From positions 1,696,001 to 1,760,000 of the forward strand of contig OZ244197.1 in the NCBI GenBank assembly GCA_965216785.1: a stretch of 64,000 nt of DNA, written 5' to 3'. This stretch comes from Thermodesulfobacteriota bacterium (lineage in GTDB: Bacteria; Desulfobacterota_D; UBA1144; Nemesobacterales; UBA2774). Both the position numbers and the translations under genes were made by a program. Each line of letters begins with the position of its first letter. Positions within the stretch are counted from its first letter, which is position 1. This document shows positions 7,167-38,770 of this stretch, piece by piece. The notes beneath the pieces are model-generated. The model saw only the letters and a program-made list of their open reading frames with translations, was not told where the DNA came from and ran no database searches.

Positions 7167-7859
7167 ATGAATCTCGCAATCAGGTTTTTTCTAGCAATAT
7201 TCGTATTCACAATCTTAGGTATTGTTACCAATATACTTTCGGTCTCGGCCCAGGAAGAGACTATTGATGTAGAAGAAGTGCTCGAGGTTAAAGAGCCCGA
7301 GATTGGGCCCGACCCCCAGCGCCTCTTCTGCGCGAAGGAGTGGACCGACTTGTATAAGAGGCGGAAGGCGGAGATACGAGTTACCACAAGGGGACAGTAT
7401 AACGAGATAGCTGTGTTTGACTGTCCGGACTGCAGCCTTGAAGAGCATTTCGTAGAACCTTTTCTCGAGACCGAGTACAGGGGTAAGACCGGGATGATGC
7501 GTCTTTACGAATGCGGATTCAAGACGGCGGTTTTCGAAGGCTTCCGGGGGACACAGGACATTGAGGTGGAAGTGCCGCAGGTATTCCCCAATCCCGAAAG
7601 GGCCCGGTGCGCGGCAGAGTGGAGCAGTCAGTACGAGAAATATCACTCGCCTGTAAAAGTATCTACCAGGGGGGAGCTGGACGAGATAATTGTGTTTAGC
7701 TGTTATTACTGTACATCTCAGAAAGGCTTCATCGCCCCGTTCCTGCTTCAGACTCATCAGGATAAAACCGCCATGCAGAGGATGCTACGCTGCGGTTATA
7801 CAGAGGTGCTTTTCACGACCCCCGACGGATCTAAGGAAGTCATTAAGAAGGTCCGGTAG
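7167..7859 (+). CDS. Exported hypothetical protein with two tandem Cys-containing repeats
   Basis: Strong RBS AAAGGAGG before ATG 7167; signal peptide ending VSA-QEE; two ~85-aa repeats (RxxCAxEW...TRG..EIxVFxCxxC...PFL...KTxMxRxxxCG). Confidence 0.8.
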   Translation: MNLAIRFFLAIFVFTILGIVTNILSVSAQEETIDVEEVLEVKEPEIGPDPQRLFCAKEWTDLYKRRKAEIRVTTRGQYNEIAVFDCPDCSLEEHFVEPFLETEYRGKTGMMRLYECGFKTAVFEGFRGTQDIEVEVPQVFPNPERARCAAEWSSQYEKYHSPVKVSTRGELDEIIVFSCYYCTSQKGFIAPFLLQTHQDKTAMQRMLRCGYTEVLFTTPDGSKEVIKKVR

Positions 7860-31928: not shown

Positions 31929-34900
31929 ATGAGTACCGTTCATAATCTAAACAATGATTCATTGGAAGTAATATCGGCATCTAGAGGGCTGCAGATAAGG
32001 GACAATCTGGAGTCTGAATATTCCGATATATATACACCTGAGGTAATAGAAGCGTTAAAAGCGCTGTCAGTGTTTAACAAGGACCAGAAAATGCTGATGG
32101 AAAAACGCTATTCCAGGCGCTCGCAGAGGTTTCGCAACAAAGAGAGAATTCGATTCCTCGATCCGAGCGATTTTATATCCAGAACAAACATTAAAGTGCA
32201 GGACGCAAGGGACGGTAAGTTTGTAGGTACTGAAATCCCGCATGACCTTCAGAGGCAGTGGATTCAGGGCACCGGTCCTGCCGCGAAACCTAATACTTCG
32301 ATAGAAAAAAGCATTCGTAACGTAGCATACGCCCTTCTTTCCGGGGCAGACGGGTGGATGTTCGACGGCGAGGACGCGCTTGGGCAGATAAGCTCCATGT
32401 CGCTCGATAACCAAAGAAACCTGAAGCTCGCGATCAAAAAAGACCCTGTGTTCATGGATACCGCAGAGAAGGTGTCACGCGAGATGAACAAGTGGGCAAA
32501 GGGATTTTTCGGAAAAGAGATAATCACAGATTGGAGAAGCCAGCTCGATTTTACTACAAAGATCTTTAGAGCCAGAGGGCTTCACCTGGACGACAGACAT
32601 ATAAGAGATGAGAACGGACTTGCTCTTTCGGCATCAGTTGCCGACGTTGTGCTCTACGTGGTTAACAACTACAAAGAGCTTGCGGCGCAGAACTCTTCAA
32701 TTGTACTTTACCTTCCAAAAATACAGACTGCTGAAGAGGCCGCTTTCTGGAACGAAATCTTAAACGCGGTGGAAGATCACCTAGACCTCGCTCACGGCGC
32801 GATAAAAGTTTACGTGCTCGTAGAGCAGATAGAGGCTACTTTCCAGCTTATGGAAATCAGGGCCGCGCTCGGAAGACATTTCGCGGGTTACAACACAGGC
32901 CGCTGGGACTACATAAACAGTGTGTCTGACGCAATGGCCTGGGACCCTACATTCATTAATCCAAACATCGAATCAATCACAATGACATACGGCTACATGC
33001 GTAACTATGAAGACAGGGTACGTAGAGCCGTAAACACTCCCGGCATAAACGGGAACTGCGCACTATGGCAGGGCGGTATGGAACCGAACATACCGGTTGG
33101 CTCTGAAGAGGGCGTCAAATCGGGTATGGAAAAGGCGCTTGCTGGAGCGGTAAGAGAGCAAAAAGAAGGCGCAAGCGGTAAATGGGTAGCACACTGGAAG
33201 ATGGTCCACATCATCAGACCTGTTTGGGAAAAAGCGGGTGAGGACAATCAGCTCGGGAGAAAGTTCCCTGCACTAACATATACAGACGAAGACGCGGACG
33301 GGCTGACTCTACTCGAGCCGGCGCCCAGGAGCATACGCGGCGCCAGAAACCTAATAAGTGTCGGGCTTCAGTACGGAAACGCATTCGGACAGGGATTTCA
33401 GGCAGCAGCGCTAAAGCCGGCAGACTTTTTCGGAAACGACGACATTCTATATCTTATGGAAGACGCCGCTACCGGAGAGATAAGGCTCAGCATTCTGTGG
33501 GAGTGGATTCATAAGGGCGCCCAGTTAAATGAGGCCGATAAGGAAACAAAGGTTAAAAAAGGCGACGTGTTCACGGCAGACCTTTTCGAAAGGCTCCTGA
33601 CCGAGGAATACGATAAGCTCCTCAAGGCCAAGGACAAAGACGTTCACGACGACTCAAAACCCACAACGCTTCCGATAGCAAGGGATATAGTGGAGACATA
33701 CGTGCTCGACGATGTGAAGACCCCTTGGTACATAGACCTTTTGAATATCAACTTGAACAATCACGATCTATCTACAGCGAAACTTAGAATTAAGCAGTAC
33801 ATGGATGCTTTCAGGAAGGACGGTACGAGAATTACCGAGAACCTGGACTTTTTGCCCGAAGAAGGACTCGATACGTCGCTAATCGACGAGCTTGATACCT
33901 TCGAAAGAAAAGTGAAAGAGACAAAAGAGTGGTTCGCGAATCCGCGCTTTAAAGGGGTGAGAAGGCTTTACTCCGCGCGTCAGGTCGTACAGCAGCAGGG
34001 TACGCTTGAGGCAGACTACGCTGTAGCCAGGAAGTATTCTGAGGAGTTCTACAACAGGCTCCGCGAGCTATTCGCAAACGGTGAGCAGATAACGAGCTTC
34101 GGACCCTACACGCCGGGTCAGGCGGTTGTTATGAAGCGCATCGGGATTGAGGGAATTTATCTCGGAGGCTGGGCGACATCCGCTAAAGGCTCATTGGATG
34201 AAGACCCGGGCGCAGACCTTGCAAGCTATCCGCTGAGCCAGGTGCCTGATGAAGCGGCAACGATTGTGCGCGCGCTTCTGACAGCGGATAAAAACCAGAC
34301 TTTCTTCCGTTCCAGAATGTCGGAGAAAGAAAGAAAATCCACTCCTAGAGTCGATTACAGACCGTTCATCATCGCCGACGCCGACACAGGGCACGGTGGA
34401 GACGCGCACGTACGAAACTTGGTACGCAGATTCGTCGAAGCGGGCGTTACGGGGTATCACATAGAAGACCAGAAGCCGGGTACGAAAAAGTGCGGACACC
34501 AGGGCGGTAAGGTTCTCGTCCCGGTAGACGAGCAGATAAAGAGACTAAACGCAGCCAGGTTCCAGCTGGATATTATGAAGGTGCCGGGCATCATCGTCGC
34601 AAGAACGGACGCTGAGGCAGCTACTCTACTTGACGGCAGGGGAGATGAAAGGGATCACCCGTTCATTCTCGGCGCAACTAATACCGAAGTGCCGGGTTAC
34701 AAGATTTGTTACCTCGCTATTCTAAAAAGGTTCTTCGATAAGGGCATCACCGATGTAAACGGTTTCATGCTCTACGATATATCGGAGGACGAGTACCAAG
34801 AGGCTTACGCATGGTTTGATAAAGTGGGCCTGACCGCGATAATAGACGAAAGCATTAAAGCGCTATTAGACGGTAAAGAGAGGAGCATAACCAAGCCTCT

Positions 34901-36197
34901 CGATAACGCAGCCACAAAGTTCGTCGAGATTTGGGAAGGCGAATCGGGGCTTATGACCTTCGCGCAGGCGGTAGCTGATGAAATGGAATTTAAAATTGAA
35001 GAGGGTCGCTCGCTCGATATGACCATGGATGAATGGTTTGAGTTCGCAAACCACTCCTCGTTCCACCATGCAAGAGAGCAAGCGCGCTCTATGGGCATCG
35101 AAGCTTCCTGGGACTGTGAGTTGTCAAGGACCCCGGAAGGTTACTATCAGGTGAAAGGCGGCATCGAATACGCGATAGCAAAATCACTCGCAGTAGCTCC
35201 TTACGCCGATCTGATCTGGATGGAAACTAAGACAGCAAACCTGGAAGAGGCAAGAGAGTTCGCGGAAGCGATACACGCTCAGTACCCGGACAAGATGCTT
35301 GCATACAACCTCTCCCCTTCGTTTAACTGGGACACTACCGGAATGACGGAAGAAGAGATGACGGTATTCCCGAAAGAGATCGGGAAGCTGGGATTTGTCT
35401 TTGACTTTATAACATACGGCGGACACCAGATTGACGGTCTGGCCTCTGAGGAATTTGCAACGGCTCTTCAGCAGGACGGAATGCTGGCGCTTGCAAGGCT
35501 CCAGCGCAAGTTCAGACTTCTTGACTCACCATATAGGACCCCGCAGTCACTCGTTGGCGGCCCGAGGCTTGACGGCGCGCTTTCGGCGTCTTCCGGTCGT
35601 ACTGCCACTACAAAGGCTATGGGTAAAGGCTCTACTCAGGTACAGCACATGGTTGAGACAGAAGTTCCGCCGAGGCTGCTTGAGCAGTGGCTTGAGCTAT
35701 GGACACAGCACTACGGGATTGCAGGACCTCTGCATGTAAAGCTTAGACCAAGCAGAGCGGGCTCGGAGCTCCTGGAGCTTTCGGTTCTGGATCCTGATAA
35801 TAACAAAGTCGCGGACGTTATCTTCTCAACACTCCGTGACCGTATGGGTAAGACTATGCTCAGCGTTAGGGACCAGAATACATATGATACCAATTACCGT
35901 CAGAAGAGACTTATGGCGCTAATTCACCTGTTCCTGATACACCGATATAAAGGTATGTCTGTGCACTATGTTAGCCCGACCGAAGACAACCAGATGCAGA
36001 CTAAGGGAATGAAGGCGCTCGGTATTTATGATGAAGTGAATACTGAAGTGGGTGATATTATTGTTGCAAAAGTTGACACGGATCGCATTGAGGGGCTTCT
36101 GAACCCTAATCAGAAGGAGCTAAAGAACCTCATAGCAAAGAAACCTTTGCCAAAGCCCAAAGCCAGTGCTAAAAAGACAACGAAAAGTAAAAAATAG
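31929..36197 (+). CDS. Bifunctional malate synthase - isocitrate lyase (ICL2 type) fusion
   Basis: N-terminal MS motifs ([43 protein letters not shown]); C-terminal ICL motifs ([45 protein letters not shown]) plus an ICL2-like tail (SVRDQNT...HYVSPTEDN). Confidence 0.93.
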
Positions 36198-36912: not shown

Positions 36913-37848
36913 TTAGTCCTCCTTACTTTCGCTCTGTTTAAATTTGTATCCTTGTCGTTCGCGGGACTTAACCCTTATAGCGTGCTCGTAGCTGTCTACA
37001 CATTCCTCTTTGCAGCAGCCGCTCCTTTCAGATCCGCAGTTCTCGCACATAACAACGAGGTCGTCGCAGACCGGGTTCTTGCAATTGGTATAGCGGTCTG
37101 TCGGCCCGCCGCACCAGATACACTGTGAAATGGTGCCGCCCTCGGGGTCTACGTCCGAAACGAGCCTCTGGTCGAATACGAAGCACTTTCCTTCCCAAAT
37201 AGTATCGGGATATTTCTGGCAGAAATTTATTATCCCGTCCTTAAGCTGATACACGTCGGTAAACCCCTGCTCAACCATGTAGGAAGTTGCTTTCTCGCAC
37301 CTGATGCCGCCCGTGCAGTAGGTGACGATTTTTCTGTCTTTTATATTCTCCAATGACTTGAGCGCCTCGGGAAAATCCCTGAAATTCTCAATGTCGGGTG
37401 TTAGGGCGTTTTTAAATTTGCCGACTTTAGATTCATAGTTGTTTCTGGTATCGAGTATTATAAAGTCCTCTCCACTCTCGTATAACTCCAACAGCTCTTC
37501 AGGAGAAATATAGCGTCCTGTTTTTTTGAGGTCGAGCTCTTGGTCCATCCGGATGATCTCCTTTTTTACCCGTACTATCATTTTCTTAAACGGGCTGAAG
37601 GTGCATGTTTCTTCTTTAAACACTATGTCGGAGAACTGATCCTGCGCGGTAAGATAGGATTTATATCTTTCCATCTGTTCTTTTGAGCCCGAGAGTGAGC
37701 CGTTAATGCCTTCTTTGGCAACGAGTACTTTACCAAGAAAGCCCTGAGACTTGCAGAATTCCAGGTGCTCTGCGGCGAATTCATCCGGTCTTTGAATGTC
37801 CGTGAATTTATAAAATAGAATTACATGTATCTTAGGTTCTGTATTCAT
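36913..37848 (-). CDS. trhO: Rhodanese-related tRNA uridine(34) hydroxylase (TrhO/YceA, UPF0176)
   Basis: ILFYKF, EGINGSLSG, LDTRNNYE..VGKF, YCTGGIRCEKA, WEGKCFVFDQR, Cys-rich C-terminus. Confidence 0.9.
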   Translation of the reverse strand: MNTEPKIHVILFYKFTDIQRPDEFAAEHLEFCKSQGFLGKVLVAKEGINGSLSGSKEQMERYKSYLTAQDQFSDIVFKEETCTFSPFKKMIVRVKKEIIRMDQELDLKKTGRYISPEELLELYESGEDFIILDTRNNYESKVGKFKNALTPDIENFRDFPEALKSLENIKDRKIVTYCTGGIRCEKATSYMVEQGFTDVYQLKDGIINFCQKYPDTIWEGKCFVFDQRLVSDVDPEGGTISQCIWCGGPTDRYTNCKNPVCDDLVVMCENCGSERSGCCKEECVDSYEHAIRVKSRERQGYKFKQSESKED

Positions 37849-37973
37849 GATCCGGTAATTATAACTGATTGTTATATTTAACTTAATAGACATACCTCTA
37901 GTACCTGGGGTCCCGTAAACAAATATCTATGAAGGATTTATGGGAGTATTTACGAATAAAATCCGCATAAACG

Positions 37974-38054
37974 AAAAGAGGGAGCGGGTTTTGAAGCCGC
38001 TCCCTCTTTCTTAAAGGAGGATGGAGGATGATTTAAGTGCGTTACTTAAGTTTC
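37974..38054 (-). ncRNA. Candidate ~80-nt small RNA with tandem anti-Shine-Dalgarno repeats
   Basis: Predicted transcript GAAACUUAAGUAACGCACUUAAAUCAUCCUCCAUCCUCCUUUAAGAAAGAGGGAGCGGCUUCAAAACCCGCUCCCUCUUUU, bounded by a near-consensus promoter and a 13-bp terminator; no AUG inside. Confidence 0.65.
37975..38009. terminator. Intrinsic terminator (13-bp perfect stem, potentially bidirectional)
   Basis: AAAGAGGGAGCGG-gttttgaag-CCGCTCCCTCTTT. Confidence 0.8.
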
Positions 38055-38060
38055 AATAAT

Positions 38061-38089
38061 AATATAAAGCGTGAGACTTAATATGTCAA
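38061..38089 (-). promoter_or_regulatory. Near-consensus sigma70 promoter driving the candidate sRNA
   Basis: Minus strand TTGACA-N17-TATATT. Confidence 0.75.
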
Positions 38090-38260: not shown

Positions 38261-38770
38261 ATGAGAAAAATCCCAAATATTTTGTATGTTTTTCTTTTTG
38301 TATCGGTCTTTGCTATAGGTTCTTTCATAGTGGAATCTCAGAGCGCGTTCGCCGGTAAAGGTGTGCAAGGGTGCGAAGTAGAAGTTGTATTGAACGCCAT
38401 ACCCGAAGGCGATACGGAATTTACATTTATTTCGACTCCAGGAGATGAATTCACCTTGGTTGAGACGGGGGAATGGTTCAAAATCTTGTTTGTGCCTATC
38501 GGCGGTTCGCTGCAAGTTACGGAGATAGTGCCCGAAGGTTGGACGCTCGTTGACGTTTCATGCGAAAGCCGAGGATCGGAAGGTTTTATCTTAATAGAAA
38601 ACGGCTTTTTCTTAGAGAGTTGCGTAGGTGATCTACTCGTATGCAATTTTGTGAATGCGCTTGAAGTAAGACCAATTCCAGCCTTATCACAGTGGGGAAT
38701 CATTGCAGCAGCAGTGGTTCTTGGGATCGTTGGTATTGTATTCTACAGCAGAAGAAAAGCTGCCGCGTAA
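38261..38770 (+). CDS. IPTL-CTERM sorting-domain surface protein
   Basis: Signal peptide, beta-rich domain (VTEIVPEGWTLVDVSC...CNFVN), C-terminal RPIPALSQWG + TM + RRK. Confidence 0.88.
   Translation: MRKIPNILYVFLFVSVFAIGSFIVESQSAFAGKGVQGCEVEVVLNAIPEGDTEFTFISTPGDEFTLVETGEWFKILFVPIGGSLQVTEIVPEGWTLVDVSCESRGSEGFILIENGFFLESCVGDLLVCNFVNALEVRPIPALSQWGIIAAAVVLGIVGIVFYSRRKAAA

Follow-up and report, generated by a model that had tools for sequence, protein, structure and literature searches.

AbcR1 and AbcR2 of Rhizobiales are sibling anti-Shine-Dalgarno sRNAs that act on mRNAs of exported periplasmic binding proteins; their motifs reside in hairpin loops, and Hfq is required. The cuckoo RNAs of Alphaproteobacteria (CcsR/RSs0680, NfeR1, SmelA075/A099) are described as two to four hairpins with the motif CCUCCUCCC in each loop (PMC4615179; PMC3927594; bioRxiv 10.1101/2025.11.14.688489). 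In the sigma-E response, the sRNAs MicA, RybB, and MicL are reported to act as repressors of outer-membrane proteins at the same time as repair proteins increase (PMC4102768). Among exported proteins, GlyGly-CTERM surface proteins are described as delivered by type II secretion (PMC6219818), and an IPTL-CTERM protein as the S-layer protein of Methylomirabilis (PMC8671808). A survey of Dadabacteria assigns type II secretion to terrestrial clades, and its available text leaves small RNA unmentioned (bioRxiv 10.1101/2020.06.22.165886). Our literature search found no report of a Dadabacteria sRNA or of a multicopy anti-Shine-Dalgarno RNA on the element analyzed here, though supplementary motif screens could list it, and no sRNA control either of GlyGly-/IPTL-CTERM-type cargo or tied to type II secretion or PilQ.

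The locus considered below lies in a window of 64,000 nucleotides, where a first-pass annotation had proposed a short minus-strand RNA with a C-rich, anti-Shine-Dalgarno tract. Its features, together with the neighboring genes and a predicted target, are as follows.

38084..38089, minus strand: -35 hexamer TTGACA (sequence and promoter consensus scan)
38061..38066, minus strand: -10 hexamer TATATT (sequence and promoter consensus scan)
38065..38081: palindrome 1, TTAAG-N7-CTTTA, between -35 and -10 and overlapping -10; predicted operator
38033..38049: palindrome 2, TTAAG-N7-CTTAA, the same segment as the previously annotated 5' hairpin; predicted second operator, 32 bp from palindrome 1
37969..38054, minus strand: predicted sRNA of about 85 nt, its start placed from the promoter
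38011..38031, minus strand: seed UCAUCCUCCAUCCUCCUUUAA, made of an anti-AUG, a 7-nt spacer, and an extended anti-Shine-Dalgarno (alignment)
37969..38009, minus strand: intrinsic-terminator hairpin (13 bp) with a short U tail (covariation)
36913..37893, minus strand: trhO, downstream neighbor (NF001133 above cut-off), syntenic at this locus only
38261..38770, plus strand: divergent exported protein with an IPTL-CTERM-like tail just under cut-off; candidate target
7167..7859, plus strand: exported protein, no family found; predicted target, rank 4 of 2837

Elsewhere in the window (31929-36197, plus strand), a malate synthase is fused to an isocitrate lyase in one 1422-aa protein.

Copies, range, and structure of the RNA

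The annotated promoter TTGACA-N17-TATATT was recovered at its minus-strand position; its hexamers, 17 nt apart, match the consensus at 11 of 12 positions and form the best of five consensus sites in the region. The tract is likewise present, at 38031-38011, and the predicted RNA contains no AUG, as had been claimed, nor any GUG or UUG up to the terminator end. The perfect 13-bp terminator with a U-tract was borne out only in its stem (arms 38009-37997 and 37987-37975), which covaries; a short, interrupted U tail follows, and the terminator was not called by a consensus scan of the region. The predicted 85-nt RNA has a fold z-score of -5.65, and none of 200 shuffles folded as well.

The source genome (G000) contains three copies with an identical tract: the window copy, C1:954523+, and C1:1076742+. 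Across 185,579 species genomes the exact 19-nt tract occurs at 115 loci, 112 of which have a sigma-70 promoter and a terminator. Because of the three copies in one genome and the promoter and terminator at 112/115 loci, the element is more than a chance match. The three exceptions are a chance match in a record titled Bacillaceae (L109), a locus with the terminator only (L131), and a reverse-complemented pilQ start (L116). The promoter follows the form TTGACA-17-TAnnnT in the 112 copies, the -35 box being TTGACA in 98/112 and TTGACT in 14/112 of the promoter-bearing homologs. Nearly all exact-tract loci belong to Candidatus Dadabacteria, with record titles mostly of Candidatus Dadabacteria or Thermodesulfobacteriota. 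Several loci labeled Spirochaetia, Ignavibacteriales, or Brocadia have an unchanged element and layout and are therefore taken as mislabeled. No tract match was found in viral contigs, and one Omnitrophota-titled pattern match, devoid of a palindrome, was set aside as probably due to chance. In three genomes (L003, L004, L007), the whole promoter-RNA-terminator unit is tandemly duplicated upstream of trhO.

Of 101 genomes in the order, 51 have a strict promoter-plus-tract pattern, in one to four copies each, with no control matches. The covariance model matches in 98 of 120 genomes of the phylum; it is strong in most families and weak in genera g14 (33/36) and g12 (4/6), with 2/19 genomes of family f9 matching at E ~5e-4. 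The g14 RNA is a true variant that has one seed change and is syntenic with the copy preceding the SCO gene; the 5' inverted repeat of the g14 copies differs. Treating g14 as an RNA-free control was thus wrong, the variant having been missed by the strict pattern. One g12 genome (G047) has the promoter, both palindromes, and a diverged seed. In three f9 and two g12 genomes, the operator-promoter pattern gave three matches, none followed by seed and terminator.

The novelty claimed for the RNA stands with respect to Rfam: at gathering score nothing matched the window, and over the element in eight related loci only two tRNAs were found, with nothing relevant at the E-value threshold either. Weak hits of 14-24 bits (best 20-24) are confined to the hairpin. 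The homolog search that the first-pass annotation had proposed as a check yielded a conserved family with a near-invariant tract.

The structural alignment comprised 42 dereplicated copies of 126 distinct ones, two of 44 representatives having been omitted for length. Its sole conserved helix is the terminator, with two-sided changes in 11/11 consensus pairs and pairing in 93.4% of cells (0/500 shuffles as high). The seed is mostly unpaired (mean probability 0.95 here, median 0.86 in the 42 homologs). The inverted repeat TTAAGT-N5-ACTTAA (38049-38033, minus strand), annotated as a 6-bp 5' hairpin, is present and folds in the window copy, but as an RNA element it does not hold up: palindrome 2 folds in 44/112 copies, its G-C pair is broken in 25/42, and its covariation is at shuffle level (292/500 shuffles). 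The covariation check thus favors the terminator and not the 5' hairpin. With its own promoter, a terminator, no ORF, and a conserved unpaired seed, the element has the general features of a trans-acting base-pairing sRNA.

The first-pass annotation had also offered an alternative, in which the RNA is an attenuator leader of trhO and the tract pairs with the 5' arm of the terminator. Such pairing is feasible in the nascent RNA (about -10.9 kcal/mol), and at 29 of 72 loci trhO lies downstream, 83-882 nt away, in a neighbor sample enriched for the window-type (trhO) locus. Yet the terminator fold of -26.9 kcal/mol displaces the tract-arm pairing once the 3' arm appears, a leader peptide is absent, and the other 43/72 loci are followed by an SCO gene (16), another gene (10), convergent genes (7), one of three further genes (5), or no hit (5). 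The wide gap to trhO and the occurrence of tandem copies also argue against attenuation. With neither a fixed downstream gene nor a competitive antiterminator seen at these loci, we regard the attenuator as hardly credible. Conservation, copy number, changing neighbors, and conserved complementary sites in predicted targets point instead to an independent anti-Shine-Dalgarno sRNA, as originally suggested.

As to expression, a small share of a marine metatranscriptome contained one 263-nt contig over 37969-38100 with three differences; it extends 87 nt upstream past the promoter, may be DNA, and delimits no discrete RNA. The same data contain scattered low-identity pieces elsewhere, and three further runs presumed to be RNA gave no match. 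Hfq was not found in the source genome, which is 92% complete; a Jag/KhpB protein, a possible chaperone, is present.

A shorter seed followed by a terminator was observed at mRNA 3' ends of the source genome (G000:C1:2034022+, 2329956+, 2127718-, 2120772-, 2115880-, 741303-). The host genes encode three 91-aa exported paralogs, an MsrB-domain protein, a 72-aa protein, and an IPTL-CTERM cluster. These six extra intergenic hits compare with 0-1 for seven control motifs, and five of them lie 4-44 nt past a stop codon. They are possible 3'UTR-derived siblings of the RNA.

An RNA-binding protein or nuclease could also recognize the C/U tract, the RNA serving as a decoy or sponge and its pairing with mRNAs being incidental. 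A near-invariant tract would suit such a role, as would the short motif before terminators at the 3' ends of several mRNAs. Against it, start codons have conserved complementary sites, one of them a perfect 20-nt match (see below), and a sponge of the CsrB/RsmZ type is at odds with a promoter that drives the C-rich strand and with the search for CsrA, which found it in none of five genomes (0/5). A protein-binding role is accordingly quite improbable in our view, and the RNA is treated below as a base-pairing sRNA.

A promoter layout shared with the type II secretion operons

The palindrome TWAAG-N7-CTTWA (17 bp) occurs twice, 32 bp apart, between the -35 and -10 boxes and just past the inferred start. 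A scan for the full two-site pattern across 59 of the 64 parts into which the genome collection is divided gave 123 matches in 120 stretches. The RNA follows 81 of them and RNA variants another five (86 together), 31 precede gspC as identified by tblastn, four more precede gspC-like starts recognized by eye, and two are cut-off RNA copies. Upstream of gspL, the palindrome site was found at 28/30 loci and in 11/12 further non-g14 genomes; upstream of gspC, in 13/13 non-g14 genomes. Palindrome 2 has the same position in the gspC and gspL promoters. The layout is common only to the RNA, gspC, and gspL, the latter two being the heads of both type II secretion operons.

In the source genome, the promoter model retrieved just five sites (the three RNAs, gspC, and gspL) at 37.8-45.0 bits, and the next match (21.9 bits) is the window element read backwards; as the model was trained on these promoters, the five matches are circular, and the informative part is the absence of others. 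Among the gsp genes, gspC, D, E, F, G, K, and N scored above the NCBIfam cut-offs and gspM above that of Pfam, while the matches of gspL, H, I, and J stayed below cut-off. In most genomes, gspC and gspL start a few bases past palindrome 2, without a Shine-Dalgarno sequence.

The link between the RNA and type II secretion is not universal. Genus g14 retains the gsp genes, with the sites lost at gspL (0/8) and gspC (1/6), and the g14 RNA keeps palindrome 1 despite this loss. In g12, gspC and gspL were not found with these queries, and G047 keeps its diverged RNA.

Two additional observations concern these genes and sites. A second, stand-alone GspC-like gene (G000:C1:1429047-1429895, minus strand) is present in most of the order and was not found in g14. 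In genome G018 (L323:1501-1517), and similarly in genus g2, a perfect single palindrome precedes an RpoD-like sigma factor gene by about 107 nt; the source genome has no such site.

In a near-consensus promoter, the interval from -35 to -10 and the bases right past +1 are typical positions for repressors, and it is from their placement there that binding of a repressor at the palindromes is proposed. Palindrome 1 is untranscribed and therefore cannot be an RNA hairpin, so that the palindromes probably act as a DNA operator. A different induction logic would follow, with the same RNA and targets, if they served an activator or if palindrome 2 were mainly a 5' RNA hairpin. The folding of palindrome 2 in a minority of copies, the different 5' inverted repeat of g14, and the regulator searches, which identified no regulator, speak for such a logic. 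We nevertheless rate it as highly improbable, given that palindrome 1 is outside the transcript and overlaps the -10 box, that palindrome 2 does not covary, and that both sites occupy repressor positions.

Single-site and paired-site scans of the genome revealed no autoregulated factor; the families searched directly were MerR and HTH_3. An XRE gene (g219), present in 116/120 genomes of the phylum and located ahead of genes for a sensor-like membrane protein and a lipoprotein and of pilMNOPQ, was rejected as the regulator: it has no conserved site and persists in 19/19 f9 genomes without a clear RNA match. The MerR-like gene g236 was rejected as having no conserved site upstream, and the DtxR/MntR, TetR, PhoB-like, and NrdR genes shared with the g14 genome G057 (names assigned by eye), as occurring in other contexts with no strong site. 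The stretch G000:C1:231324-232893 (minus strand; L490), upstream of pilMNOPQ, encodes such an XRE regulator along with a sensor-like membrane protein and a lipoprotein of the FxLYD-like type. A MerR-like gene at G000:C1:256641-256985 (plus strand), conserved across the order, starts directly past its -10 box and is leaderless.

Predicted targets

The complement of the seed reads UUAAAGGAGG, a 7-nt spacer, and AUG, that is, an extended Shine-Dalgarno sequence with a start codon. Duplexes were ranked over 2837 genes called in the source genome, 608 of them labeled exported, with our own heuristics for starts and signal peptides; the exported set includes 54 mapped of the 56 IPTL-CTERM hits. Exported genes account for 21 of the top 25 duplexes, against a background of 21% and 6/25 with the 16S 3' end as a probe, and for 16 (seed) versus 7 (16S) of the top 25 when only upstream windows are used. 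The top 30 include 24 exported genes, compared with 12.7 +/- 3.0 for flank-shuffled seeds (0/150 as high). The base after GGAGG is A, which pairs with the seed and not with 16S, in 31/38 IPTL genes versus 121/376 other genes. Without the IPTL-CTERM genes, the enrichment for exported proteins is modest: 12/20, 21/40, and 42/80, values that 10, 10, and 1 of 120 shuffles equaled or exceeded. Seed-type start motifs precede exported genes more often than 16S-type ones in the source genome (16/18 versus 6/15, p 0.008); the same contrast in families f7 and f5, where 30 + 30 loci were sampled from 122 and 150 matches, gave 10/20 versus 9/26 (p 0.37). The divergent window gene (38261..38770, plus strand) has a 10-nt perfect match and ranks 181 of 2837, and all 12 gsp genes rank between 518 and 2793 of 2837.

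In the g14 genome G057 (1220 genes called), 15/25 top duplexes involve exported proteins versus 3/25 with the 16S probe. Behind this excess are 15 collagen-like, calcium-repeat lipoproteins at ranks 3-61; once the family is collapsed, significance is lost (40, 22, and 28 of 200 shuffles).

Several observations were made on individual families along the way. The fifteen paralogous lipoproteins of G057 (for instance, L755:10216-12153, plus strand), with collagen-like and calcium-binding repeats, are scattered over the chromosome, and all have seed-complementary starts. In the source genome, 56 IPTL-CTERM matches exceed the cut-off; such proteins reach 59 per genome in family f1 and are nearly absent elsewhere in the order. 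IPTL-CTERM proteins were rejected as the ancestral target, since they occur in 36/101 genomes, mostly of f1. Seed-complementary starts were also seen in an RpoD-like sigma factor gene (G000:C1:2322817-2324160, plus strand; rank 9) and in the Jag/KhpB gene (G000:C1:659549-660205, minus strand; rank 381).

Conservation of pairing was assessed among orthologs, a start being counted if it fell within the top 5% of the duplex distribution of the source genome; each distinct start region was counted once, loci whose start was cut off were excluded, and the genes were picked from the source-genome ranking, their orthologs being kin. Pairing is kept in 24/25 orthologs of pilQ (TIGR02515 above cut-off; 16S probe 12/25) and, for the two lipoprotein genes that follow it, in 11/17 (g211) and 11/16 (g210), with two by the 16S probe in each. 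It is kept in 22/29 orthologs of a DUF3943 exported protein gene (16S probe 5/29) and in 27/28 of a TsaP-like gene (16S probe 3/28). The latter encodes LysM and FlgT_C, the domain layout given for TsaP (bioRxiv 10.1101/2020.05.29.123786). In L537, the start of pilQ is complementary to the seed over 20 nt with no mismatch, and GGAUGG-type extensions past the Shine-Dalgarno sequence are conserved in pilQ, TsaP-like, and DUF3943 orthologs. Among control genes, top-5% pairing was found for pilP in 0/18, pilO in 0/26, pilN in 3/27, and an XRE gene with a conserved GGAGG in 0/26; it was found for gspC in 0/22, gspL in 0/28, and gspD in 0/6. With 0/24 orthologs in the top 5%, trhO is not a predicted target. 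In the one g12 genome with a diverged seed, no compensatory change was seen at its pilQ start.

The same rankings bear on whether the RNA could be a general anti-Shine-Dalgarno damper of every mRNA that has a strong site of the AGGAGGA type, exported proteins leading the list through their strong sites. Exported and IPTL genes are ranked no worse by the 12-nt core than by the full seed, the 16S probe too favors exported genes (AUC 0.62-0.64), frr and tuf also rank high in G057, as does a sigma factor gene in the source genome, and the enrichment is weak once the expanded families are removed. General damping would not, however, account for the conserved GGAUGG-type extensions or for the low 16S counts at the pilQ, TsaP-like, and DUF3943 starts; genes of the r-protein region have a median rank of 1204, and the promoter is shared with the gsp operons only. 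On balance, we consider it unlikely and prefer selective pairing with surface- and outer-membrane-protein mRNAs.

Proposed circuit and comparison with known systems

The observed gene layout, copies, shared promoter sites, and complementarity with its conservation in orthologs lead us to propose a conserved Dadabacteria sRNA that has a two-palindrome promoter layout in common with the gsp operons. In surface- and outer-membrane-protein mRNAs, its seed likely masks both the ribosome-binding site and the start codon, lowering their translation. A dimeric repressor bound at both palindromes would hold down gspCDEFGHIJK, gspLMN, and the sibling sRNAs, all of which would rise together upon its release. 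As gspC and gspL have no Shine-Dalgarno sequence, these head genes would escape the sRNA. The sRNAs would damp pilQ, the TsaP-like gene, the two lipoprotein genes of the pilQ operon, the DUF3943 protein gene, and many surface-protein genes (those of IPTL-CTERM proteins in the source genome); occlusion of these starts is suggested by the conserved complementarity. On balance, the secretion machine would become more abundant and the envelope traffic that competes with it would shrink; our guess at the inducing signal is an envelope or secretion overload.

More tentatively, and with somewhat less than even confidence, we put forward a stricter version, an Hfq-independent circuit dedicated to type II secretion, whose repressor would govern the machine and the sRNAs only, rivals and cargo carrying a start-site tag. 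The first genes of the machine would have dropped their Shine-Dalgarno sequences and so escape, whereas the rival secretin complex (PilQ, TsaP) and the surface cargo would bear the extended tag read by the sRNA. Unrelated expanded surface-protein families would have re-acquired this tag in two lineages. The 56 IPTL-CTERM proteins resemble GlyGly-CTERM proteins in having a C-terminal motif, a hydrophobic helix, and a basic tail, and by this analogy, together with that to the S-layer protein bearing the IPTL-CTERM tail, may be type II secretion cargo.

If correct, these proposals would add a new sRNA family, the first for the uncultured phylum Dadabacteria as far as our literature search shows, and would place the type IV pilus secretin and surface proteins under a post-transcriptional brake coupled to type II secretion. 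They would also provide an instance of an anti-Shine-Dalgarno RNA that owes its specificity to recognition of the spacer and start codon and works without Hfq. We further predict that IPTL-CTERM proteins, a barely studied sorting class, are surface cargo under sRNA control. Our overall assessment is of a new sRNA family with a known mode of action, in a circuit for which no description was found in the literature searched.

Like the cuckoo RNAs, the family consists of multicopy anti-Shine-Dalgarno sRNAs (CCUCC) predicted to silence many mRNAs at the ribosome-binding site. A kinship with cuckoo/CcsR, named as precedent in the first-pass annotation, is not supported, motif and architecture both being different. 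The motif CCUCCUCCC is absent, the seed here being CAUCCUCCAUCCUCCUUU; instead of two to four adjacent hairpins with a motif in each loop, there is one linear, unpaired 21-nt seed and a single terminator, the only conserved helix, with an own promoter for each copy; and the range is that of Dadabacteria rather than Alphaproteobacteria, with no Rfam match at gathering score. As with AbcR1 and AbcR2, sibling anti-Shine-Dalgarno sRNAs are predicted to act on exported-protein mRNAs. Unlike the AbcR pair, those described here have no Rfam match, differ in predicted targets and in promoter, and occur in a genome (92% complete) where Hfq was not found.

Finally, the circuit may be likened to that of the sigma-E sRNAs in enterobacteria, where one regulator raises envelope-handling proteins and lowers outer-membrane and lipoprotein synthesis via sRNAs. 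In contrast to these, the RNAs of Dadabacteria are unrelated in sequence, their host yielded no Hfq, and they carry an extended anti-Shine-Dalgarno and anti-AUG seed. In all 112 copies, their promoter is of the sigma-70 and not the sigma-E type. The promoter layout comprises two palindromes, and the protein arm of the proposed circuit would be a type II secretion system.
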